From a virus (lineage: Duplodnaviria > Heunggongvirae > Uroviricota > Caudoviricetes), in IMG/VR virus record IMGVR_UViG_3300025875_000002, positions 1 to 64,000 of that record: a DNA stretch of 64,000 nucleotides; one strand, given 5' to 3'. Position 1 is the stretch's first letter, and each line of letters opens with the position of its first letter. A program made the position numbers and the translations under genes. Positions 2,790 through 61,016 of this stretch are shown piece after piece. The notes below the pieces were generated by a model. That model was not told where the DNA came from. It did not search any database and saw only the letters and a program-made list of their open reading frames with translations.

Positions 2790-3239
2790 ATGAAAACGTG
2801 TTCAAGATGTAAAGTAGAAAAAACAATAGACTCGTTTGGACCGTATAAGGCAGCCAAAGACGGTCTACACGTTTGGTGTCGTCCTTGCTCTAACGCTTAT
2901 CATAAGGAATACAAAGAACGCAACGTAGAGAAAGTTAATGAGTGGAGAAGAAAGACGCATCTAAAGGGAAGATATGGCATAGATCAGGCTCAATTTGATA
3001 AGATGCTATCTGATCAAAATAATAGTTGTGCCATTTGTTTTACTCGCGTTACAGAAAGCTCACGAACAGTTAATTTTTACATTGACCATGACCACGCTTG
3101 TTGTCCTGGCCATAAGAGTTGCGGAAAGTGTATAAGAGGATTGCTATGTAATTCTTGCAATACTACTCTTGGTTTTGTTAAAGATAGCGTCGAGACGCTA
3201 GAGGCTATGATAAGCTACTTAAGAAGAGGAGTCAAATGA
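2790..3239 (+). CDS. HNH endonuclease, Endonuclease VII-like family
   Basis: DHDHACCPGHKSCGKCIRGLLCNSCN signature; paralogous to 7488, 13474, 26817, 60123(-). Confidence 0.8.
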   Translation: MKTCSRCKVEKTIDSFGPYKAAKDGLHVWCRPCSNAYHKEYKERNVEKVNEWRRKTHLKGRYGIDQAQFDKMLSDQNNSCAICFTRVTESSRTVNFYIDHDHACCPGHKSCGKCIRGLLCNSCNTTLGFVKDSVETLEAMISYLRRGVK

Positions 3240-3787: not shown

Positions 3788-3825
3788 GATTTGACATAAG
3801 TCATAGTCAGTTATACAATAACAGT

Positions 3826-4365
3826 ATGACAAAAGAATTAGCTCTGCCTGAGCGTTATGATGAGATGCATCGAGTGATAACTCTGCATCTAGAAGGCCGT
3901 AATGCCTCATGGATAGCTAAGAATCTCAATATGAAGCGTGTCGATGTCTTGAATTATATTCAAGAGTTCAAAGAAATCGCCAAAAGCGATGATCTGCTTA
4001 AGGCGCGTGCGCAAGAGGTAGTTCACGAATTCGACCAGCAGCACAATCGAATCATCGCTAGTCTTTGGGAAGTACACGACGAGGCCGAACAGGCAACAGA
4101 TGGCTTGAAGATTCGTGCAACAGCACTAAAGTCACTTTCAGATATCTCCGCTAAGCGTGTGGAAGTATTGCAAAAGTCAGGACTTCTTTCTGATGCCGCT
4201 CTTGGCGATGAAATGGCAGAGCTAGAAGATCGTCAAGAGAAACTCATTGCTATTTTACGTGAGGTTACGGCTGATTGTAACCATTGCAAGTTTGAAGTGG
4301 CTCGCCGCCTGTCAGACGTTGACGGCAAGGTCGTTCCAGTAAGAGTGGAGGCCGAGCGTGAGTAG
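3826..4365 (+). CDS. putative terminase small subunit / DNA-binding protein
   Basis: Immediately upstream of and overlapping terminase large subunit; HTH-like N-terminal region; coiled-coil C-terminus. Confidence 0.35.
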   Translation: MTKELALPERYDEMHRVITLHLEGRNASWIAKNLNMKRVDVLNYIQEFKEIAKSDDLLKARAQEVVHEFDQQHNRIIASLWEVHDEAEQATDGLKIRATALKSLSDISAKRVEVLQKSGLLSDAALGDEMAELEDRQEKLIAILREVTADCNHCKFEVARRLSDVDGKVVPVRVEAERE

Positions 4366-6190
4366 ATTTGATGACTTTTTGTCTGTACTTGATGATTCTG
4401 AATTTGAAGAAATCCCGGTTGACATTGACACGTTCGTTGAAGACGAGCGTTTTCTTGGCAAGCGCAAGATGAAGCTTTCGCCGGTACAGCGTGAGTGTCT
4501 ACTTATGATGACACAGATTTATCGTAAGGACACACTAGACTCCTACCTAAGTGCAGAAGATGCACAGAAGCGATGGAACACTCTAAAGAACGAAATTATC
4601 CTACAGCTAGGCAAGGGTAGTGGTAAGGACGAAATGAGTGCTATGGCTATTGCCTACATTGTTTATCAGCTATTGTGTCTAAAGGACCCAGCCGCATACT
4701 ACAACAAGCCAGCCGGTGACAACATTGACATTATCAATGTTGCTATTAACGCCGAGCAGGCTTCTAACGTTTTCTTCAAGAAGTTCAGCAACTTCATTAC
4801 TGTTTCACCTTGGTTTGAGGATAAGTATGAGGCCAAGGCAGACCGCTCACCAATGAAGTCTAACCAGTTCAATTTTAACAAGAACGTTAACGTTTACTCC
4901 GGCCACTCTGAGCGTGAGGCTTGGGAAGGCTACAACCTTTTTGCAGCCGTACTTGACGAGATTGCCGCCTTCGCGCTAGAGTCAGCATCAACTCAGGGAA
5001 AGACCGCTGAGGCCGTCTGGAAGATGTATAGAGCTTCTGTCACCAGTCGTTTTGCAGAGTTCGGAAAGGTAATCAGTCTTTCCTTCCCCCGTTACAAGGG
5101 TGACTTCATCACTCAGCGTTACGATAAGGTCATTGCGTCAAAGCAGGTTGTCAAGCGCCGGGAAGTCTTGAAGATCGTTGAAGACTTGCCTGACGGAATC
5201 GCCGGTAATGAACTAGTGCTCGAATGGGACGAAGACCATATTGATGCATACACACAGCGGAAGGTTTACGCACTGCGCAGACCACCCTGGGATGTTAACC
5301 CTATTGCTCGCATTGAGCATTATGTATCTGACTTCGTTGACGACTATGCTGACTGCATGGGTCGTTACTGCTGCATGCCACCCGAGGCTGTTGACGCATT
5401 CTTCAAGGATCGTGACAGAATTGAGCAGGCATTCTCAGGTCAAGTAATTTCAAACGCAGTGGACAATGAAACTGGTGCGTGGACTGACGCTTGCGAACCG
5501 GACTCATCTAAGATATACTTTGTCCACGTTGACCTTGCACAAAAGCACGACCGTTGTGCAGTGTCTTTGGCCCACGTAGAAAAGTGGGAGAGGCGTCAAA
5601 TTAGTAACATAGGTAAGCTAGAGGGACCGGCGCCGGTTGTTTACGTGGACGCTATCCGTTACTGGCAGCCTACCAAGCAGAAAGAAGTTGACTTCGATAA
5701 GGTACGGGACTACATTGTATCTCTACAGCAGAGAGGCTATAATTTAAGACTAGTTACCTTCGACCAGTGGCGCAGTGAGGACATGAGAAAGTACCTTGCC
5801 AGCATCGGTATTCGTACTGACCTTCTTTCAGTTAAGAAGGAGCAGTACGTTGACTTTGCCGTTGTTCTCAACTCGGGCCGGTTGCACGGACCACTAGAAC
5901 CTCTTATTAGAGAGGAACTACTAGGACTAAGACTCTTCCCTAACGGAAAGATCGACCACCCAAGGCAGGGGTATAAGGACCTTTCCGACGCAACGGCTGG
6001 TGCTATCTTCAATGCAATTCGAAGAACTCCTCGGTCGGCAGACACAGAAATTGAAGTAAAGACAGTTAAAGACGTAAGAAAGGTTGCACGGAACGAACTA
6101 CCCAAGAAGACTGGTGTTATTGCTGCTCCTAAGAAGCAAATGCCACCGGAGCTTAAGGCTTTTCTAGAGAGTGTTCCAAGAATAATATGA
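4358..6190 (+). CDS. terL: terminase large subunit
   Basis: 610 aa; Walker A-like GKGSGKD, Walker B-like VLDEIAAF, C-terminal RNaseH-like nuclease motifs (VHVDLAQKHD). Confidence 0.7.
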   Translation: MSRFDDFLSVLDDSEFEEIPVDIDTFVEDERFLGKRKMKLSPVQRECLLMMTQIYRKDTLDSYLSAEDAQKRWNTLKNEIILQLGKGSGKDEMSAMAIAYIVYQLLCLKDPAAYYNKPAGDNIDIINVAINAEQASNVFFKKFSNFITVSPWFEDKYEAKADRSPMKSNQFNFNKNVNVYSGHSEREAWEGYNLFAAVLDEIAAFALESASTQGKTAEAVWKMYRASVTSRFAEFGKVISLSFPRYKGDFITQRYDKVIASKQVVKRREVLKIVEDLPDGIAGNELVLEWDEDHIDAYTQRKVYALRRPPWDVNPIARIEHYVSDFVDDYADCMGRYCCMPPEAVDAFFKDRDRIEQAFSGQVISNAVDNETGAWTDACEPDSSKIYFVHVDLAQKHDRCAVSLAHVEKWERRQISNIGKLEGPAPVVYVDAIRYWQPTKQKEVDFDKVRDYIVSLQQRGYNLRLVTFDQWRSEDMRKYLASIGIRTDLLSVKKEQYVDFAVVLNSGRLHGPLEPLIREELLGLRLFPNGKIDHPRQGYKDLSDATAGAIFNAIRRTPRSADTEIEVKTVKDVRKVARNELPKKTGVIAAPKKQMPPELKAFLESVPRII

Positions 6191-6417
6191 CAGACGATTG
6201 CAAGTGCGTGGAGCGGCACGTCCCACTGCCCACCCACTACAGGTCTTTACAAGTCGGCGGCGAGGTGGTAAGCTTGTGCCCTACAACGTACGAGAACATC
6301 AGGGACCTGTTGATGAGCTTTCAGGTTCATGATACAGTTCCGCCAGGCAAGATTACGAAGCATTACTCAAAGTTTGTTCGTGAGATTTGTTTGCGGTTGT
6401 GGAAAGAGTCTCAGTAG
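6187..6417 (+). CDS. hypothetical Cys-rich small protein
   Basis: ORF track; overlaps terL stop. Confidence 0.3.
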   Translation: MTDDCKCVERHVPLPTHYRSLQVGGEVVSLCPTTYENIRDLLMSFQVHDTVPPGKITKHYSKFVREICLRLWKESQ

Positions 6418-6432
6418 TGGTATAATTACAAC

Positions 6433-6933
6433 ATGACTTGTAACGATGCTAAATGTGATAGCCCTGCCGAAAGGCGGGGCTATTGCCTTAAGCACTACAT
6501 GCATTTTTACAGGTACGGTGCAAATTACGCTGATGTGCCTGCTTGCCGTGACTGTGGCAACCCTACAGGAAGTGATAAAAGGGTAAAGCGGTACTGTGAT
6601 GATTGTGCTATAATTAGAATTAGACAGGATCGGATCAGGGCAAACAACCGTCGCCGGTCACGGTCAGGCAAGGGTGATCACTACACGATCCAGATTCTTC
6701 TTGACTTGGACGGTCAGACGTGCTATCTTTGTGGCACAACGTTGACGGAGAGCCCGTCGATAGATCATGTAATTGCTCTGTCTCTCGGTGGGACAGATAC
6801 AGTAGACAATGTAGCACTTACCCATTGGGAGTGCAATAATCGAAAGAAGGCTAAGAATTTAGATGATACACGCTTAGAGTTTCCACACATGGCAATTCCT
6901 AGCAGAATTAGGGGTGAATTAAGATGCGAATGA
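6433..6933 (+). CDS. HNH endonuclease
   Basis: N-terminal zinc-ribbon cysteines; DHVIALSLGGTDTVDNVALTHWECNNRK HNH core. Confidence 0.75.
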   Translation: MTCNDAKCDSPAERRGYCLKHYMHFYRYGANYADVPACRDCGNPTGSDKRVKRYCDDCAIIRIRQDRIRANNRRRSRSGKGDHYTIQILLDLDGQTCYLCGTTLTESPSIDHVIALSLGGTDTVDNVALTHWECNNRKKAKNLDDTRLEFPHMAIPSRIRGELRCE

Positions 6934-7448
6934 CAATGGATATGACGAAGGCTGAGATTTTTGCCTTCCTAGCGGAACGAGACGGTTACAGGTGCACCTT
7001 CCCAGGTTGCGTCCGTCCTCTTGGTGACCCTAACGACATTGACACACTTGACCACATTTACCCTCAGTTTCTTGCTAAGCAGGCGGGTTGGACTAGGGCT
7101 GAAATTGATGCCTTGGACAACCTACAGATTCAGCACAAGCGGTGTAACGCTATCAAGGGTCACCAGCTTCCGGACGAAAACGGTAACTTCATTGTTCCCG
7201 TTCGTGAGCCTAAGCCCGTGCGTGGTCCGCGTCCTGAGATTTGTGACACGTGTTACAACGGTCGAATCTTGTTCATCGGTGAAGTTTGTCCAGACTGTGA
7301 GTCTGGACCGCAGCCTGCTGCTGCGCCCTCTGCATACAAGAAGACTCCTAAGGAGTGCAGCCACAGCGGTTTCGATCACTGCTGGATGTGCTACCTTGGT
7401 TTTGTTGAGCGTGGCTCTGCCTTGCAGAATTTGATTACTGGCACCTAG
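6924..7448 (+). CDS. HNH endonuclease
   Basis: LDHIYPQF...LQIQHKRCNAIKG HNH core; C-terminal CxxC pairs. Confidence 0.65.
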   Translation: MRMTMDMTKAEIFAFLAERDGYRCTFPGCVRPLGDPNDIDTLDHIYPQFLAKQAGWTRAEIDALDNLQIQHKRCNAIKGHQLPDENGNFIVPVREPKPVRGPRPEICDTCYNGRILFIGEVCPDCESGPQPAAAPSAYKKTPKECSHSGFDHCWMCYLGFVERGSALQNLITGT

Positions 7449-7487: not shown

Positions 7488-8105
7488 ATGGCAAATAAAA
7501 ATTGGTCAGAGGACGGCAGGGTGTGTAGGGATTGTAAGGTGTTTCAATCATTAGATCACTTTAATATTCGAAAGAATGGTATTCCTTACACGCTCTGCCG
7601 TCCTTGCCAGACGGCAGACAATAAGAAGAGAGCCGCCCGGAGAACTGTGTTGTCTCCAGACAGCATTAGAGTTTGTAGTGAATGTTTCTTGGAGAAAAGC
7701 ATTTTGGAGTTTCCAAAGAACAAAAATAGCGCTGGTGGGTATTTAAATCTTTGCAAGCCCTGTAATGCTAAGAAAAACTCGATTGCTAAGTGGGGTGTAG
7801 ATGTTACACAATATAGTTATTGTGTGATTTGCAAGGAAACGCTTGTTCCTGGTAGGGGAACCGTAGTTGATCACGACCATAACTGTTGCCCGGGACAAAA
7901 GTCTTGTGGAAGCTGTGTTCGTGGTGTACTGTGTAATCGTTGCAATGTTGGGCTAGGCATGTTTAAAGATAGCCCAGCCTTGCTCATTCAGGCTGCAACA
8001 TATGTATCCGAAACTTTGGGCAGTCGCATAGGATTACGCAGTGGTAAAGATGGTGGCCCCATTTTTCCATACAGGGCCAACTGGAACCTTGACAGCGAGG
8101 ACTAG
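7488..8105 (+). CDS. HNH endonuclease, Endonuclease VII-like with N-terminal Zn-ribbon repeats
   Basis: DHDHNCCPGQKSCGSCVRGVLCNRCNVGLG signature. Confidence 0.8.
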   Translation: MANKNWSEDGRVCRDCKVFQSLDHFNIRKNGIPYTLCRPCQTADNKKRAARRTVLSPDSIRVCSECFLEKSILEFPKNKNSAGGYLNLCKPCNAKKNSIAKWGVDVTQYSYCVICKETLVPGRGTVVDHDHNCCPGQKSCGSCVRGVLCNRCNVGLGMFKDSPALLIQAATYVSETLGSRIGLRSGKDGGPIFPYRANWNLDSED

Positions 8106-8153
8106 AGGGTGTACACTGATGGCATGAACGGAGCCGACACCTAGGAGCTAGAT

Positions 8154-8600
8154 ATGACGACGACCATTGACAACTTTACTGGTCAATACGACTTTCTTTC
8201 TAATTTCTATGCCCGTCCCTTTGAGTGGGAAGGCGAGACTTGGAGAACGTCGGAGCACGCTTTCAACGCAGCGAAAACATTACTACCCGGAGAACGCATT
8301 TGGGTGCGTGATGCAAAGACGCCCGGTGAAGCGAAGCGTCGTGGTCGTGTAGTTACATTGCGTAATGATTGGGATAAGCACTGGCGGTACGTGCTGATGT
8401 ATGATATCGTTCGTACCAAGTTCAGTGATCCTGTCATGCAGGATATGCTTGCGTCAACTCACGATTCCATCCTTGTCGAAGGTAATACTTGGCATGATGG
8501 TTTATGGGGAGTTTGTCGCTGTGCGACCTGCCCGCCCGGCAGGAATTGTTTGGGCATTTTGCTTATGCAAATTCGTTTTGACATAGTAAGAGGCATATAG
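8154..8600 (+). CDS. NADAR (YbiA/DUF1768) family protein
   Basis: Hallmark motifs FLSNFY, WRTSEHAFNAAK, LGILLMQIR match YbiA-like NADAR domain. Confidence 0.75.
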   Translation: MTTTIDNFTGQYDFLSNFYARPFEWEGETWRTSEHAFNAAKTLLPGERIWVRDAKTPGEAKRRGRVVTLRNDWDKHWRYVLMYDIVRTKFSDPVMQDMLASTHDSILVEGNTWHDGLWGVCRCATCPPGRNCLGILLMQIRFDIVRGI

Positions 8601-8704: not shown

Positions 8705-8778
8705 TGCAGGCGTAGCTTAGTGGCCTAAAGCTCCCCTCTCTAAAAGGGGGATCGTGAGTTCGACTCTCACCGCCCGCA
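8705..8778 (+). tRNA. tRNA with anticodon CUA (amber-reading suppressor-type); amino acid identity undetermined
   Basis: Clean cloverleaf: acceptor GCAGGCG, D GCTT/AAGC, anticodon stem CCCCT/AGGGG, loop CTCTAAA (U33, A37), T arm GTGAG-TTCGACT-CTCAC, short variable arm. Confidence 0.5.
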
Positions 8779-8779
8779 C

Positions 8780-9874: not shown

Positions 9875-10291
9875 ATGAAAACATGTTCGATGTGTAAGTT
9901 AGAAAAGCCCTTCGATGCATTCGCTAAGGCAACAGGAACAAAAGATTTGTTGCAGCGTGGATGCAAAGATTGTAAGGCAGCGCAGTACAAGGCCAATAGT
10001 GGTAAGTATAAGGCGGGATCGAAAGAGGCAAGGGCGCGCAGGGCTGCTAAGCTAGCAGAACTAAAGTCTGCGCCTTGCACTGACTGCGGTGTTCAATATC
10101 CTTCGTATGTGATGCAATATGATCATATTGGTTTGGACAAGACAGCCCATGTATCATACTTAATGTCAAGAGTTTCTTGGTCTGTAATCTTGGAAGAGAT
10201 TGCAAAGTGTGAGCTTGTGTGTGCGAATTGTCATGCTGAAAGATCACATCAAAGAGCAAAAGATTTAATCGGGAACGAGGAAGATGGTTAA
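9875..10291 (+). CDS. HNH endonuclease (family with 19706..20008 and frameshifted 28775..29282)
   Basis: CTDCGVQYPSYVMQYDHIG...AKCELVCANCH motif; N-terminal Cys pairs. Confidence 0.7.
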   Translation: MKTCSMCKLEKPFDAFAKATGTKDLLQRGCKDCKAAQYKANSGKYKAGSKEARARRAAKLAELKSAPCTDCGVQYPSYVMQYDHIGLDKTAHVSYLMSRVSWSVILEEIAKCELVCANCHAERSHQRAKDLIGNEEDG

Positions 10292-13473: not shown

Positions 13474-13920
13474 TTGGAGGCGTTCAGTGCGAACGCCTCC
13501 AAGGCAATTGGTCGTAATGGCGAGTGCAAGTCATGCAAATCAGAGTATGACAAGTCCTACCGTACTAAGAACCCCGAAAGGGTGCGAGAGCAGAGAAAGC
13601 AGTTCCGTAAAGACAATTCTGATCGGCTAAAGGAAAAGCATAAGCGATGGTATGCTGACAATAAGGTGTTAGTCAGGCGACGAGTCAAAGAAAAGACATA
13701 CGGCATACCTTGGTCAGAGGTCGAGTTAATGCTTGACAACCAAGATGGTTGCTGTGCAATTTGTGGCGATGAATTTGGAGACAATGTTCCTCAGATTGAT
13801 CACTGTCATGTGACTGGTAAGGTTCGTGGCCTTTTGTGCCGATCCTGTAACACATCTTTGGGCGGCTTTAAGGACGACGTAAATAACTTGCATGCAGCTA
13901 TAGCATACTTGGAGGATTAG
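13474..13920 (+). CDS. HNH endonuclease, Endonuclease VII-like
   Basis: DHCHVTGKVRGLLCRSCNTSLG signature, CAICG. Confidence 0.8.
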   Translation: MEAFSANASKAIGRNGECKSCKSEYDKSYRTKNPERVREQRKQFRKDNSDRLKEKHKRWYADNKVLVRRRVKEKTYGIPWSEVELMLDNQDGCCAICGDEFGDNVPQIDHCHVTGKVRGLLCRSCNTSLGGFKDDVNNLHAAIAYLED

Positions 13921-16093: not shown

Positions 16094-16684
16094 ATGACCA
16101 GAGCACTCATTGTTGTAGATATACAGAATGACTTTGTTGAGGGTGGTTCACTGCCGGTCGAGGGAGGAATCAAGCTCGGTTATCTTATTGCTAACGCTAT
16201 TTCTTCTCTTAAGAGTTTTGGTCTTTACGATCATGTTGTTGCGACAAAGGACTTTCACCTCCCAGGAGACTCCAACGGTGGACACATTTCCGACAACCCT
16301 AATTACGTGAGCACTTGGCCTAGCCATTGCATCCAGGGCACTACGGGTGCTATGTTTGTGCCTCAGGTTGAGGCCATCGCTGATGATTTTGAGGCGATCT
16401 TTTACAAGGGCCAGGGTCGTGCAGACTACTCTGGCTTCCAAGGGGTTGACGTCAACGGTGATCATCTGTACACTTGGCTTACAGCACGGAACGTTGACTC
16501 TGTTGATGTGATCGGTATTGCTACAGACCATTGCGTCAAGGTGACAGCCGAGGACGCAATCATGGCCGGTTTCGCTACGCGGATTCCGGCTTTACTTACT
16601 GTGGCAGTCGGCGGTCCAGATGCGGTTGTTGATACGATTGAGAAGATCAACCGTATGCAGGGACTGAATAGGAGAATCAATTGA
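16094..16684 (+). CDS. pncA: nicotinamidase/pyrazinamidase PncA (isochorismatase family)
   Basis: ALIVVDIQNDF, VVATKDFH, HCIQGT, VIGIATDHCV (catalytic Asp-Lys-Cys and metal-binding His pattern); near colinear with mycobacterial PncA. Confidence 0.85.
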   Translation: MTRALIVVDIQNDFVEGGSLPVEGGIKLGYLIANAISSLKSFGLYDHVVATKDFHLPGDSNGGHISDNPNYVSTWPSHCIQGTTGAMFVPQVEAIADDFEAIFYKGQGRADYSGFQGVDVNGDHLYTWLTARNVDSVDVIGIATDHCVKVTAEDAIMAGFATRIPALLTVAVGGPDAVVDTIEKINRMQGLNRRIN

Positions 16685-29765: not shown

Positions 29766-30073
29766 AGGGGCTGAAATGGTATCGACCTCTGAAAAGAAAT
29801 AATGTACGCAGCCCGTCTTTGAGGTAGAGACGTTAAACGACTTCAAAAATAATAAATGCAGACTACGATGTAGTTGCAGAGGCTGAGGCAATTCTTGCCG
29901 AGGCTTCTCTAATTTCTGCCTAATCGCGGATTGAGGGGCAACTCCTTAGAAACAGAAAGTTGCAACGCAATACCCCGCACTGCCAAGTAAGACCCGCCGG
30001 GGTTACGGAATGGCTGTAATAATGATATTATGGAAGATCAGAGGGACAGGGGTTCAAATCCCCTCAGCTCCAC
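29766..30073 (+). ncRNA. ssrA: tmRNA (ssrA)
   Basis: 5 prime GGGGCTGAAATGGTATCGAC resembles tmRNA 5 prime end; 3 prime GGACAGGGGTTCAAATCCCCTCAGCTCCA resembles tmRNA tRNA-like 3 prime end; internal tag frame GCA GAC TAC ... GCC TAA preceded by A-rich tract. Confidence 0.6.
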
Positions 30074-53347: not shown

Positions 53348-54127
53348 ATGAAGTATGAGAAGAATCTAAAGAATAACATCCTAGAGGGCGTGGTGATCGG
53401 TGTTGTTTTTACCGGTCTGTCCTATCTCCTTGGCGTTTCTTTCGGATGGATTGACAGCGTTAACTGGCTAGAAGCCTTCGCTGTCTTCACCTCCTACGTG
53501 TGCACGTGGCTGTGTGTTCGTGAGCGTCGGTGGAACTATCCCATCGGTGCACTGTCTACCGCAGCCTACGCTGTAGTTTTTTGGCAGATGGACCTGTATG
53601 CTAGTGCTGCACTTAATGCCTACCTTGTGCCTACGCTGCTTTACGGCTGGTACAGGTGGCGCGATGATGACAACACTCGTCCGATCACGCGGGTTGCGGC
53701 CAAGTGGATTCCTGTCTACCTCGCTGTGACCGCTGCAACTTATGGCGCTGTGCTCTTGATTATAAACGCCTTCGATGCTAAGCTTGCTCTGACAGACAGC
53801 GTGATCCTGGTCGGGTCGATCCTGGCTCAGTTCCTGCTGGACAACAAGAAATTGTCCACTTGGAGCGTTTGGGCTGTGGTCAATGTCCTCGCCATTTATA
53901 CCTATTTCAACGCAGACTTGACCCTCGCTGGCTTCCAATACATTACCTTTTTACTCAACACCGGCGTTGGATATATTGTTTGGAAGAATTCAATGAATAG
54001 GAATAATGATGACCCGAGCCTTTACATTAATGACATGTCTACCCCCAACCCTGGGGCACCTACGATTAATTCAATTCAGCCAGCAGCTAGCACCGACGAC
54101 GGTGATCGTAAGCACGCAGCCGTCTGA
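53348..54127 (+). CDS. pnuC: nicotinamide riboside transporter PnuC
   Basis: Multi-TM; QMDLYASAALNAYLVPTLLYGWYRWRDD closely matches PnuC signature region (LYAS...GWY.W). Confidence 0.8.
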   Translation: MKYEKNLKNNILEGVVIGVVFTGLSYLLGVSFGWIDSVNWLEAFAVFTSYVCTWLCVRERRWNYPIGALSTAAYAVVFWQMDLYASAALNAYLVPTLLYGWYRWRDDDNTRPITRVAAKWIPVYLAVTAATYGAVLLIINAFDAKLALTDSVILVGSILAQFLLDNKKLSTWSVWAVVNVLAIYTYFNADLTLAGFQYITFLLNTGVGYIVWKNSMNRNNDDPSLYINDMSTPNPGAPTINSIQPAASTDDGDRKHAAV

Positions 54128-55034
54128 GCCTTTTCCGATGGAGCGCTACAAGGCAATCAAGGAGGCCATTTCTGGTCAGGGAGTCATGGCAATGCTATAC
54201 AACAGAGAGATTGAGCAGAACCCCGAAGCCCCTGGATTCTGGCAGACATGGCGAGATATCTTTTATCAGTATGGTTTCTCAGAGGGTGACTACATCGTAG
54301 CCAGTGAGCCTTACGGACAGCGTTTGGCAGAAGAGCTTGGTGGTGTGTTTATGCCTTATGACCTTAACCGGTCCATTGACCCAATTAAGGCCACACCGGT
54401 TCGTAATGATCCCCTGACGCTCTGGCGTTGGAGGGATATGGTTCCTGAGTTTCGTAAGTACGTGATGCAGCGAGTTACCATTTTCGGTGCTGAGTCTTGC
54501 GGAAAGACTACTCTCAGTCAGGACTTGGCCGTTGAGTATAACTCTCGGTGGCTGTTTGAGTGGGCACGGCCTTACCTAGAGGCTGTCGGTGCTGAGGTTA
54601 CCGACGAAAAGATGTATGCAATTCACAAGGGTCAGCTTGCTTTGCAGCAGCATGGCCGGTGGAATGTGACAGACGCGCCGGTTCTGTTTCAGGATACAGA
54701 CCTGTTTAGCACTGTTGGTTACTGGAATCTCTGGAAGCCAGAGCACAACATCAATGAACTTATCCTTGATGCGGCTGACAATAAGTCCCAGCTTTACCTG
54801 ATTGCACCCTCTAATATTCCGTTTGAGGCTGATCCTCTCCGGTACGGTGGGCATGAGCGGGAGTCGGCAGACCAGTTTTGGATCGACCTGTGCAAGTCTT
54901 ATGGACTTAACTACAGAGTCTTGACTTCCAGCGACCGGGTTGGTAGAGTGAAGGAAGCGGGCAAGTATATCCATGAGTTGCTGGACGACAACATTGTCCA
55001 GCCGTTGCACTACGAGAGGACGTTCAATGGTTGA
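54006..55034 (+). CDS. nadR: bifunctional NMN adenylyltransferase / ribosylnicotinamide kinase NadR
   Basis: NMNAT motif FTLMTCLPPTLGHLRLIQ (GxFxPxHxGH-like); RWRDMVPEFRKYVMQRVTIFGAESCGKTTL matches NadR RNK-domain Walker A region; 3 prime of pnuC overlaps by ~120 nt. Confidence 0.85.
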   Translation: MMTRAFTLMTCLPPTLGHLRLIQFSQQLAPTTVIVSTQPSEPFPMERYKAIKEAISGQGVMAMLYNREIEQNPEAPGFWQTWRDIFYQYGFSEGDYIVASEPYGQRLAEELGGVFMPYDLNRSIDPIKATPVRNDPLTLWRWRDMVPEFRKYVMQRVTIFGAESCGKTTLSQDLAVEYNSRWLFEWARPYLEAVGAEVTDEKMYAIHKGQLALQQHGRWNVTDAPVLFQDTDLFSTVGYWNLWKPEHNINELILDAADNKSQLYLIAPSNIPFEADPLRYGGHERESADQFWIDLCKSYGLNYRVLTSSDRVGRVKEAGKYIHELLDDNIVQPLHYERTFNG

Positions 55035-55257
55035 GTTTGTTGCTCTTGGAGCGGCAATTGCTCCTGCACTATACGCTACCTATTTCCTCGGAACCAAGCG
55101 GTCAAGGACCATTGAGTATGAGGAACCAGATTGTATCCATGAATGGGGCAAATGGAAGGTTGCAGAAGTAACTGGCAGCAAGGCCGTTTGGGGACAGACG
55201 CGCAATTGCACTAAGTGTGGCTACACTATTTGGAAGAAGGGAACGGTTGACCGTTAA
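54973..55257 (+). CDS. hypothetical small protein with CxxC
   Basis: ORF track; CIHEWGKW...CTKCGY; overlaps nadR end, doubtful. Confidence 0.2.
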   Translation: MSCWTTTLSSRCTTRGRSMVEFVALGAAIAPALYATYFLGTKRSRTIEYEEPDCIHEWGKWKVAEVTGSKAVWGQTRNCTKCGYTIWKKGTVDR

Positions 55258-55717
55258 GGAGGTATTGATGGACGCAGTGATTGTGGATATGGATGGTACT
55301 GCTGCTGACGTAAGGACAATTCGTCATCACGTTACTGGAGCGGTTCACAATTTTCATAAATTTTATGAAGAATCGGTTAATTGTCCGCCCAATATTGAAG
55401 TGATCGATGCTGTCAAGAAGGCTCAGTCTAATGGACTAAAGGTATTAATTGTTACCGCTCGACAGGATCGGTACATGTATCACACTCTTTTCTGGCTGTC
55501 TGGCCCGGAGGTTGATCTATCCTTTGATGACATTTATATGAGAAAGACTAATGATAACCGGCCGGATCATGTGGTAAAGAGGGAGATCCTCGAAAGAATT
55601 TACAAGGACGGATACAATCCTGTCCATGCTTGGGATGATCGGCCTGATATTGCTGCAATTTGGGAAGAGGCAGGCATTCCAACCACTCTGGTGGCTGGAA
55701 TCGGCTTTGAAGATTGA
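55217..55717 (+). CDS. HAD-superfamily phosphatase
   Basis: Motif I VIVDMDGT (DxDG[TV]); size typical of small HAD nucleotidases/PNK-phosphatase domains. Confidence 0.5.
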   Translation: MATLFGRRERLTVKEVLMDAVIVDMDGTAADVRTIRHHVTGAVHNFHKFYEESVNCPPNIEVIDAVKKAQSNGLKVLIVTARQDRYMYHTLFWLSGPEVDLSFDDIYMRKTNDNRPDHVVKREILERIYKDGYNPVHAWDDRPDIAAIWEEAGIPTTLVAGIGFED

Positions 55718-60644: not shown

Positions 60645-61016
60645 ATGAGTTTTAGAATACTGGTGAGCGGGAGCCGCGAGTGGGACGATCCTCTTGCCAT
60701 AGAGAACGCTATCATTGATCTAAAGAATTGGTATCCGTTCATATGGGAGGACGTAGTAATTGTTCATGGTGATTGCCCTACCGGGGCCGATGCTATGGCA
60801 CAAAAGTTTGCCGATGAGGTAGACCTAATTACTGAACGTCACCCTGCTGATTGGAAACAATTCGGTAAGTTCGCCGGTCCAAAGCGTAATCAAGAGATGG
60901 TTGACAGTGACATTAACGTCGTGTTAGCGTTTCCTAAGGGATTGTCCAAGGGCACCCGAGGAACAATCAAGATGGCTAAAGAGGCCGGTCTTGTAGTTAA
61001 AGTTTATGAGGGATAA
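60645..61016 (+). CDS. SLOG-fold (DprA/Smf-like, DUF2493-type) nucleotide-binding protein
   Basis: ILVSGSREW...VVIVHGDCPTGADAMAQKFA...AFPKGLSKGTRGT pattern typical of SLOG/DUF2493 Rossmann-like proteins. Confidence 0.45.
   Translation: MSFRILVSGSREWDDPLAIENAIIDLKNWYPFIWEDVVIVHGDCPTGADAMAQKFADEVDLITERHPADWKQFGKFAGPKRNQEMVDSDINVVLAFPKGLSKGTRGTIKMAKEAGLVVKVYEG

Follow-up and report, generated by a model that had tools for sequence, protein, structure and literature searches.

An orphan NADAR gene in a putative actinophage-like virus: a candidate nucleic-acid de-ADP-ribosylase related to AdfN-Bas32

What does a solitary NADAR gene do in the genome of a tailed virus? Orphan NADARs have recently been established as a phage counter-defence against DNA ADP-ribosylation (the AdfN proteins), and this question is raised by a gene at positions 8154–8600 (+ strand) of IMG/VR virus record IMGVR_UViG_3300025875_000002. 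The stretch analysed, hereafter the window, comprises 64,000 nucleotides (nt) and is the terminal 64 kb of the 133,313-bp metagenomic contig ERZ27293403 k141_2035252. A preliminary description of this DNA took the gene for a YbiA-like NADAR and a candidate eraser of ADP-ribose marks with a possible anti-DarT-type counter-defence role. The analysis below points in the same direction: the window NADAR is probably (about 0.6) an orphan, antitoxin-like nucleic-acid de-ADP-ribosylase that would serve as an AdfN-type counter-defence.

The open reading frame (ORF) begins with ATG at 8154 and ends with TAG at 8598–8600, encoding 148 amino acids (aa), and a Shine-Dalgarno-like AGGAG (8143–8147, + strand), read from the sequence as a candidate ribosome-binding site, lies 6 nt ahead of the start codon. 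Pfam PF08719 matched residues 11–143, covering profile positions 9–161 of 163, with an E-value of 1.2e-19 and 71.6 bits against a gathering cut-off of 35.1; the preliminary description had named the lack of such a match as grounds for giving up the NADAR identity, and the match is clear. The PHROG family phrog_1017 was matched with E 1.3e-36, and sequence searches of the PDB returned Escherichia coli YbiA (2b3w, E 1.2e-13) and the Phytophthora nicotianae NADAR (PnNADAR; 8bau, E 1.1e-7). An AlphaFold2 model built from a 59-sequence alignment reached a mean predicted local distance difference test score (pLDDT) of 97.1 and a predicted template modelling score (pTM) of 0.90, and its sole significant Foldseek matches in the PDB were YbiA 2b3w (query TM-score, TMq, 0.85) and ADP-ribose-bound PnNADAR 8bau (TMq 0.80). 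Alignment and model together describe the NADAR alpha+beta fold as a bare core, in which the FLSNF motif begins at residue 14 with no N-terminal extension. Three independent assemblies carry the identical protein and others carry orthologues at 68–78% identity, while the ratio of nonsynonymous to synonymous substitution rates (dN/dS) was 0.13 against a 72%-identical orthologue, a comparison in which synonymous sites are nearly saturated. Given these family and structure matches, the fold model, the recurrence across assemblies and the low dN/dS, the ORF is a genuine NADAR gene and not a chance reading frame.

All hallmark motifs that had been ascribed to the protein were found: FLSNF (14–18), SEHAFNAAK (with E34 and K41), AKRRGR (60–65), VEGNTWHDGLWG (with E109, D115 and W118) and GRNCLG..LMQIR. 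Individual residues were mapped through a HMMER alignment to 8bau, whose chain index equals the published numbering plus 2, and residue roles were taken from Schuller et al. (PMC11543638). The ADP-ribose contacts of PnNADAR, namely E43, K50, K75, G78, R79, D86, W89, R93, E125, D130 and W133 (PMC11543638), correspond in the same order to E34, K41, K61, G64, R65, D72, W73, R78, E109, D115 and W118, and the sole difference among the contacts is the adenine-stacking Y84 of PnNADAR, which is R70 in the window NADAR; 10 of 11 contact residues were counted as identical. The codons from E34 to K41 (8253–8276, + strand) would thus supply distal-ribose and phosphate ligands by alignment and are invariant in 60 homologues, and those from E109 to W118 (VEGNTWHDGLW; 8478–8507, + strand), aligned with PnNADAR E125, D130 and W133, form the predicted second half of the active site. 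Across the homologue alignment E34, K41, K61, E109 and D115 are invariant, and the set E34, K41, E109, D115 and W118 is invariant or nearly so. Work elsewhere has shown E36/K43 of AdfN-T4 (PMC11257639), and E43/K50 of PnNADAR and E88/K95 of the E. coli C7 NADAR, DarG1 (PMC11543638), to be essential, and all three pairs align with E34/K41. At the second catalytic position Glu is the signature of the YbiA/NADAR families, Asp that of DarG1 and His that of T4-type phage NADARs (PMC11543638); by this residue, E109 groups the window NADAR with the YbiA/NADAR families. As judged from the alignment, the ADP-ribose site is intact.

The relatives of the protein give this site a probable use. A tblastn search found NADAR homologues in 471 phage records, including 125 from Streptomyces phages, 84 from Vibrio phages and many from T5-like Salmonella and Escherichia phages. 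The top matches were Rhodococcus phages at 51% identity, and one of the T5-like matches was Escherichia phage IrisVonRoten, whose locus tags (bas32_0066) identify it as BASEL phage Bas32. The window NADAR is 46% identical to AdfN-Bas32 (bas32_0066) over 148 columns (119 bits, E 3e-40), a bit score nearly double that against E. coli YbiA (36% identity, 65 bits), whereas BLASTP against T4 gp30.3 gave no significant similarity (E 0.2). AdfN-Bas32 rescued three DarTG1-sensitive phages by several logs and neutralised DarT1 in uninfected cells, with no rescue from DarTG2 (Johannesman et al., Nat Commun 2025; PMC11257639; PMC11825919). The same authors assigned AdfN-Bas32 to an 'archaeal-type' phage cluster (PMC11257639; PMC11825919), and a genome scan with the motif of the window NADAR's subclade retrieved archaeal genomes, consistent with that placement, together with actinobacterial, deltaproteobacterial and clostridial ones. 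All tested NADAR families strip ADP-ribose from ADP-ribosylated guanine (G-ADPr) in DNA and RNA in vitro, and some act on the cytosine adduct (C-ADPr) too (Cihlova et al. PMC11125620; 2026 Toxins PMC12945103). The de-ADP-ribosylase reading is favoured because of the 46% identity to an anti-DarT1 protein and the conservation of the essential residues E34/K41, and on the same two grounds the initial proposal of a candidate ADP-ribose eraser with possible anti-DarT-type activity is supported.

Homology and the intact site suggest the following chemistry. E34 and E109 would be the ligands of the distal ribose, and K41, R65, W73, R78 and W118 those of the diphosphate. Cleavage would fall between C1'' of ADP-ribose and the exocyclic guanine amine (N2), possibly that of cytosine also, within nucleic acid, freeing ADP-ribose and restoring the base. 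The marks erased would be those put on phage DNA by a host ADP-ribosyltransferase (ART) to block replication, the host enzyme being DarT1-like or, if the host is an actinomycete, ScARP/Scabin-like; substrate, expression timing and host enzyme identity are all presumptive. The ScARP/Scabin-type enzymes are restricted to Actinomycetes and modify G and C in DNA, RNA and tRNA (PMC12945103), and for an actinomycete host such targets would be at least as plausible as DarT1. The window NADAR is an orphan: it is flanked by genes for a homing endonuclease and a tRNA, with no adjacent toxin, and no ART family appeared when 103 ORFs of the window, which covers 64 kb of the 133-kb contig, were scanned with Pfam.

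Several observations weigh against this interpretation. Streptomyces reportedly carry mainly the thymidine-specific DarTG2, whose modification is irreversible by NADARs (PMC11125620; PMC12945103). In uninfected cells neither YbiA nor T4 AdfN neutralises DarT1 (PMC11257639; PMC11125620), and hydrolysis of guanine-ADPr in vitro is no guarantee of protection in vivo. A Cys-rich insertion in a loop sets the window NADAR apart from the tested AdfN-Bas32. Moreover, across 80 IMG/VR loci sampled from at least 536 that exist for this NADAR type, the gene recurs beside RNA-repair, translation-rescue, SLOG and NAD+ (nicotinamide adenine dinucleotide) genes, so other substrates would fit. Finally, the NCBIfam model for a riboflavin-intermediate N-glycosidase is passed marginally by the window NADAR.

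The last of these points leads to the function that automated annotation would assign, a housekeeping YbiA-type N-glycosidase destroying reactive intermediates of the riboflavin pathway. TIGR02464 ('riboflavin biosynthesis intermediates N-glycosidase') scored the window NADAR at 78.0 bits against a cut-off of 73.7, homologues are labelled 'ribA/ribD-fused' by JGI, and both the identity to YbiA and the Glu at the YbiA-signature position agree with such an assignment. A control scan with the same model, however, gave 169.5 bits for true YbiA and 66.3 for the anti-DarT1 AdfN-Bas32, and placed the two orthologues of the window NADAR from its closest lineages, L006 and L007, below the cut-off (68.5 and 66.1 bits); other phage NADARs scored 73.7 (gp204 of Streptomyces phage Gilson) and 72.7 (Peregrin gp35). 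On these control scores the match does not discriminate; it appears to denote superfamily similarity and not equivalence, and it was dropped as evidence of riboflavin function. YbiA itself also strips G-ADPr in vitro (PMC11125620), the window NADAR is by bit score nearly twice as close to AdfN-Bas32 as to YbiA, and the Pfam scans of the window showed no riboflavin family; the gene stands among phage genes, with no RibA/RibD fusion or neighbourhood and no LexA/dinG-type cellular operon. A riboflavin-directed role is hence very improbable, and the label 'YbiA-like' fits loosely, given the Glu signature on the one hand and a score far below that of true YbiA on the other.

The loop insertion deserves attention on its own account, as it sits beside the active site, in the loop that joins the D115/W118 and G129-x-N131 motifs. 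The pattern H114 plus C121-x-C123-x2(-4)-C126 (C121-x-C123-x2-C126 in the window NADAR; 8493–8531, + strand) is present in the window NADAR and 52 of 60 homologues, with position 126 being Cys in 48 sequences and His in 4. Four sequences have Gly at 114 and all four lack the insertion, so that His114 covaries with its presence; AdfN-Bas32, YbiA and Gilson gp204 are without it. PnNADAR has an insertion of about 30 residues in the same loop (unaligned 8bau index 138–170), a stretch that we take to be the substrate-groove insertion of the Phytophthora enzyme. The His and Cys3 pattern possibly resembles a Zn knuckle, and the segment is therefore listed as a candidate Zn-knuckle insertion from its alignment pattern; a literature search on zinc-binding NADARs found nothing relevant. 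Carried further, the window NADAR could belong to a distinct metal-binding, stand-alone branch whose knuckle loop retunes substrate recognition, countering ScARP/Scabin-like pierisin-type transferases instead of DarT1 and shielding both the phage genome and its tRNA set. This elaboration is doubtful at present; if true, it would provide the first tie between ScARP-type enzymes and anti-phage defence.

Which host chemistry is relevant depends on the kind of virus. The Streptomyces BE-type phages (Stanwilliamsviridae) have the most similar large terminase subunits, at 54% identity, ahead of those from Gordonia, Rhodococcus and Tsukamurella phages. Other window genes code for WhiB and for an Rpf-type transglycosylase that comes with an M23 peptidase, and HNH/EndoVII genes are numerous. 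Every gene is on the same strand, GC content is about 47%, and ARAGORN identified 37 tRNAs and one transfer-messenger RNA (tmRNA). In view of the terminase relatives, the tRNA/tmRNA set, the WhiB and Rpf-type genes and the gene layout, the virus appears to be a large actinophage-like one, and its host is probably an actinomycete. Megablast of window positions 6–11 kb against 50,697 phage records returned no match. The tmRNA (29767–30073) lies within the tRNA array and has the tag peptide ADYDVVAEAEAILAEASLISA; Gilson has a tmRNA too.

The immediate surroundings bear on a different substrate, RNA. The NADAR gene lies 105 nt upstream of the first member of the tRNA array, a tRNA with CUA anticodon (8706–8779, + strand; ARAGORN), and both L006 (tRNA at 6872–6944) and L007 (5421–5493) preserve the order of NADAR, tRNA(CUA), tRNA-Gln(CUG) and the tRNAs beyond. 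Gilson gp204, 39% identical to the window NADAR, is located about 0.9 kb from the RNA ligase gp207 (PF09414, E 1e-17) within a tRNA region. Among the 80 viral loci the recurrent neighbours were PTH2 peptidyl-tRNA hydrolase (10 loci), calcineurin-like phosphoesterases (9 and 6), a polynucleotide-kinase-like AAA_33 kinase (7), RNA ligase (7), YAcAr SLOG (6) and NAD synthase (5), and a tRNA was present within 1 kb of NADAR in 14 of the 80. These contexts suit an enzyme that removes ADP-ribose from guanine or cytosine of RNA, especially phage tRNAs, or that clears the ADP-ribose by-product of RNA repair, in either case as one element of what the phage invests in translation and tRNA upkeep, as do the modification of G in tRNA and single-stranded RNA by ScARP/Scabin, the reversal of RNA G-ADPr and C-ADPr by NADARs (PMC12945103) and the tie to KptA-type RNA repair proposed by Iyer et al. 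Yet the tRNAs are spread across 40 kb of the genome, making adjacency weak evidence, no neighbour family exceeds 12% of the loci, and the Pfam scans of the window revealed no KptA/Tpt1, 2H or RNA ligase family. In vivo action on RNA has been shown for no phage NADAR, and the tested homologue counters the DNA-directed DarT1. An RNA-directed role is accordingly unlikely.

Returning to the DNA-directed, AdfN-type reading, the preliminary description had also argued from position, placing the gene in a run of HNH endonuclease genes directly downstream of terminase and taking this for an early-injected region. The gene order is as described: the terminase large subunit (4358–6190) is followed by a 76-aa ORF, an HNH gene (6433–6933, PF01844), an HNH-like gene (6924–7448, phrog_9645) and an endonuclease VII/HNH-type homing endonuclease (7488–8105, + strand; PF02945, E 1.2e-15), the last of which is placed outside NADAR function and is absent here in L006 and L007. 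The early-injected location did not survive. Positions 1–36 of the window are a run of 36 G, a sequencing or assembly artefact at the contig end; as the window is the terminal part of a contig, its left edge is not a genome terminus. In the nearest annotated relatives, the Streptomyces BE-type phages, the terminase lies in mid-genome: the syntenic block of Gilson, made up of Cas4-like nuclease, deoxynucleoside monophosphate (dNMP) kinase and terminase, occupies 55–64 kb of a 128-kb genome, beyond the replication genes, with the terminase at 62 kb and NADAR gp204 a further 37 kb on. The contig-end artefact and the mid-genome terminase leave the early-injected argument unsupported.

A functional link between the HNH genes and NADAR was likewise considered and rejected. 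In L006 and L007 the order runs, as in the window, from terminase through NADAR to a series of tRNAs (CUA, Gln, Gly, Glu and Trp), but other genes intervene, and none of the window's HNH and EndoVII genes recognised by Pfam is present. A location of NADAR with terminase on one side and the tRNA array on the other is thus shared by three lineages, whereas the homing endonucleases around it vary; being absent from these syntenic relatives, they are incidental and behave as mobile insertions. The number of HNH/endonuclease VII homing-endonuclease-like genes across the window is unusually high, with at least ten Pfam matches scattered between the tRNAs and varying among syntenic relatives; such genes occur at 2790–3236, 6433–6933, 6924–7448, 7488–8105, 9875–10291 and 13474–13920, with several more between 28 and 50 kb.

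Early expression, which position by the terminase does not support, is suggested by the promoters. A sigma-70-like promoter candidate, TTGACA-17 nt-TACACT (8089–8117, + strand), agrees with the consensus at 10 of 12 positions and ends 37 nt ahead of the NADAR ATG, and the same TTGACA-17-TACACT also precedes the NADAR orthologue in L007. A motif scan restricted to 6–10 kb did not rise above shuffle expectation, and strand bias is the meaningful control: the whole window contains 41 copies of TTGAC[AT]-N16-18-TAnnnT on the + strand but 2 on the - strand, and for 23 of the 41 a gene or tRNA begins within 100 nt downstream of the end of the site. Examples on the + strand lie at 3791, 8089, 9081, 14266, 20644, 29483, 32798, 38867 and 39275, and many of the sites have TGC/TGN ahead of the -10 element. 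The set resembles a family of closely spaced host-type promoters spread along the tRNA/accessory region, and its strand bias suggests early expression. The motif family lends some positive support to expression of NADAR by the host, with transcription most likely by host RNA polymerase from the gene's own sigma-70-like promoter.

Two side observations concern the codon TAG. The tRNA(CUA) downstream of NADAR is of the amber suppressor type, is labelled 'Pyl' by ARAGORN and shows no obvious derivation from the tRNA-Gln(CUG) next to it. Of 107 called ORFs in the window 16 end in TAG, fewer than in either other stop, and the NADAR ORF itself is TAG-terminated. Recoding of TAG by the suppressor tRNA was considered and set aside, since a long ORF follows in frame after only one of the TAG-terminated ORFs, which gives no sign of wholesale recoding. 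The 76-aa ORF downstream of terminase (6187–6417) ends in TAG and is in frame with the HNH ORF at 6433–6933, with 171 more codons to the stop, and amber suppression would fuse the two; the arrangement is probably a coincidence, since in relatives the HNH gene is missing although the small ORF is there.

Elsewhere the window contains further genes linked to NAD+ and ADP-ribose. A PnuC-like nicotinamide riboside transporter (53348–54124; PF04973, E 8.7e-40; TIGR01528) adjoins a NadR-like nicotinamide mononucleotide adenylyltransferase plus ribosylnicotinamide kinase (54006–55031; TIGR01526, E 2e-28; AAA_28); as called, the NadR ORF opens about 120 nt before the PnuC ORF closes, and its true start therefore probably lies further downstream. 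This two-gene architecture has been named NARP3 and is reported mainly in Enterobacteriaceae phages (PMC13464706), whereas here it occurs in an actinophage-like genome. Also encoded are a nicotinamidase/pyrazinamidase-like isochorismatase (16094–16681; NF008623, E 1.5e-24), a PNKP-type HAD phosphatase (55217–55714; PF25109, E 2.4e-20) and a YAcAr (YspA-type) SLOG protein (60645–61013; PF10686, E 1.4e-15). This content agrees with the contextual picture of Iyer et al. 2022 and leaves room for RNA or small-molecule substrates. One could accordingly imagine that the window NADAR hydrolyses N-glycosidic bonds of soluble ADP-ribose derivatives, be they signals of immunity or toxic products of NAD+ breakdown, and works with the phage NAD+ salvage genes to sustain the NAD+ economy under NADase-type defences; the PnuC/NadR pair, nicotinamidase-like and SLOG proteins of the same genome would fit, as would the recurrence of SLOG and NAD synthase genes beside this NADAR type in viral contigs. 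However, the PnuC, NadR, nicotinamidase-like, PNKP-type and SLOG genes all lie 8–52 kb from NADAR, outside its neighbourhood. Cleavage of a signal of the cyclic ADP-ribose (cADPR) type has been shown for no NADAR, and the phage NADARs tested so far all act on DNA guanine-ADPr (PMC11257639; PMC11125620). Such a small-molecule role is therefore quite unlikely.

A single-protein scan of IMG/VR found nothing, and the nearest IMG/VR NADAR is just 50% identical to the window NADAR. Among 71 cellular genome loci two conserved neighbourhoods emerged, one of P450, K+ channel and short-chain dehydrogenase/reductase (SDR) genes in Actinomycetota and one with rhodanese in Desulfobacterota, and neither holds an ART or riboflavin gene as a partner; the cellular members of the subclade stand alone, in unremarkable chromosomal neighbourhoods or prophage-like regions. 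The closest named 'cellular' homologues, from Nonomuraea ceibae and another Nonomuraea sp. (L012 and L013), are situated in prophage-like stretches of small unidirectional genes, which include an L5 gp82-like gene, WhiB and RuvC, with a DpdA-like protein 5 kb off, and one of the Nonomuraea NADAR homologues is translationally coupled to a PP2C phosphatase gene. The NCBIfam model NF053876 ('DS32_2 NADAR family anti-phage protein') indicates that NADARs serve the defence side too, and the window NADAR matches it weakly (32 bits against a cut-off of 240).

Orphan phage NADARs of this clade have already been described and tested, and the window gene is probably a further example of a known counter-defence; taken alone, the finding confirms existing knowledge and leaves it unchanged. 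It carries the tested Bas32-type clade into a previously unsampled large, tRNA-rich, actinophage-like lineage, and offers a concrete candidate for asking which ADP-ribosyltransferases are defences in actinomycetes. The combination of NADAR with the NARP3-like pair, the nicotinamidase and the SLOG protein makes a compact test case of one phage that may hold several answers to NAD+/ADP-ribose-based immunity.

Among known systems, AdfN-Bas32 is the closest tested relative of the window NADAR. Both are stand-alone phage proteins of about 148–149 aa that consist of the NADAR core only, with the same catalytic E/K pair and E..D..W motif, no adjacent toxin and TIGR02464 scores close to the cut-off. 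AdfN-Bas32 differs in coming from a T5-like coliphage in which its gene is found among nucleotide-metabolism genes, in having Gly at 114 without the C-x-C-x2-C insertion, and in that its function has been demonstrated, whereas that of the window protein is inferred. AdfN-T4 (gp30.3) is likewise an orphan phage NADAR that removes ADP-ribose from DNA guanine and shares the E and K of the first motif, but it belongs to a separate T4-type family with His at the second catalytic position, where the window NADAR has Glu, and its activity is tied to hydroxymethylated T-even DNA (PMC11257639).

DarG1, the BC4488-family antitoxin of DarTG1, has the same fold and, as proposed for the window NADAR, reverses N2-guanine ADP-ribosylation. 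Its gene adjoins DarT1, whereas no ART or DarT ORF lies beside the window NADAR; it carries an N-terminal beta1-beta2-alpha1 extension with a basic DNA-binding groove that the window protein lacks, and it has Asp (D171 in C7) in the place of Glu E109, which is invariant in the window clade. E. coli YbiA is the top structural match and shares the minimal core fold and the Glu signature at 36% sequence identity, but it is a cellular gene in a LexA-controlled operon and gives no in vivo protection against DarT1. The ScNADAR SCO5665/ScARP system of Streptomyces coelicolor, which performs reversible G/C ADP-ribosylation, relies on a cellular enzyme, and its tie to the window phage is presumed; for an actinophage, its chemistry would be the most plausible type of host chemistry.

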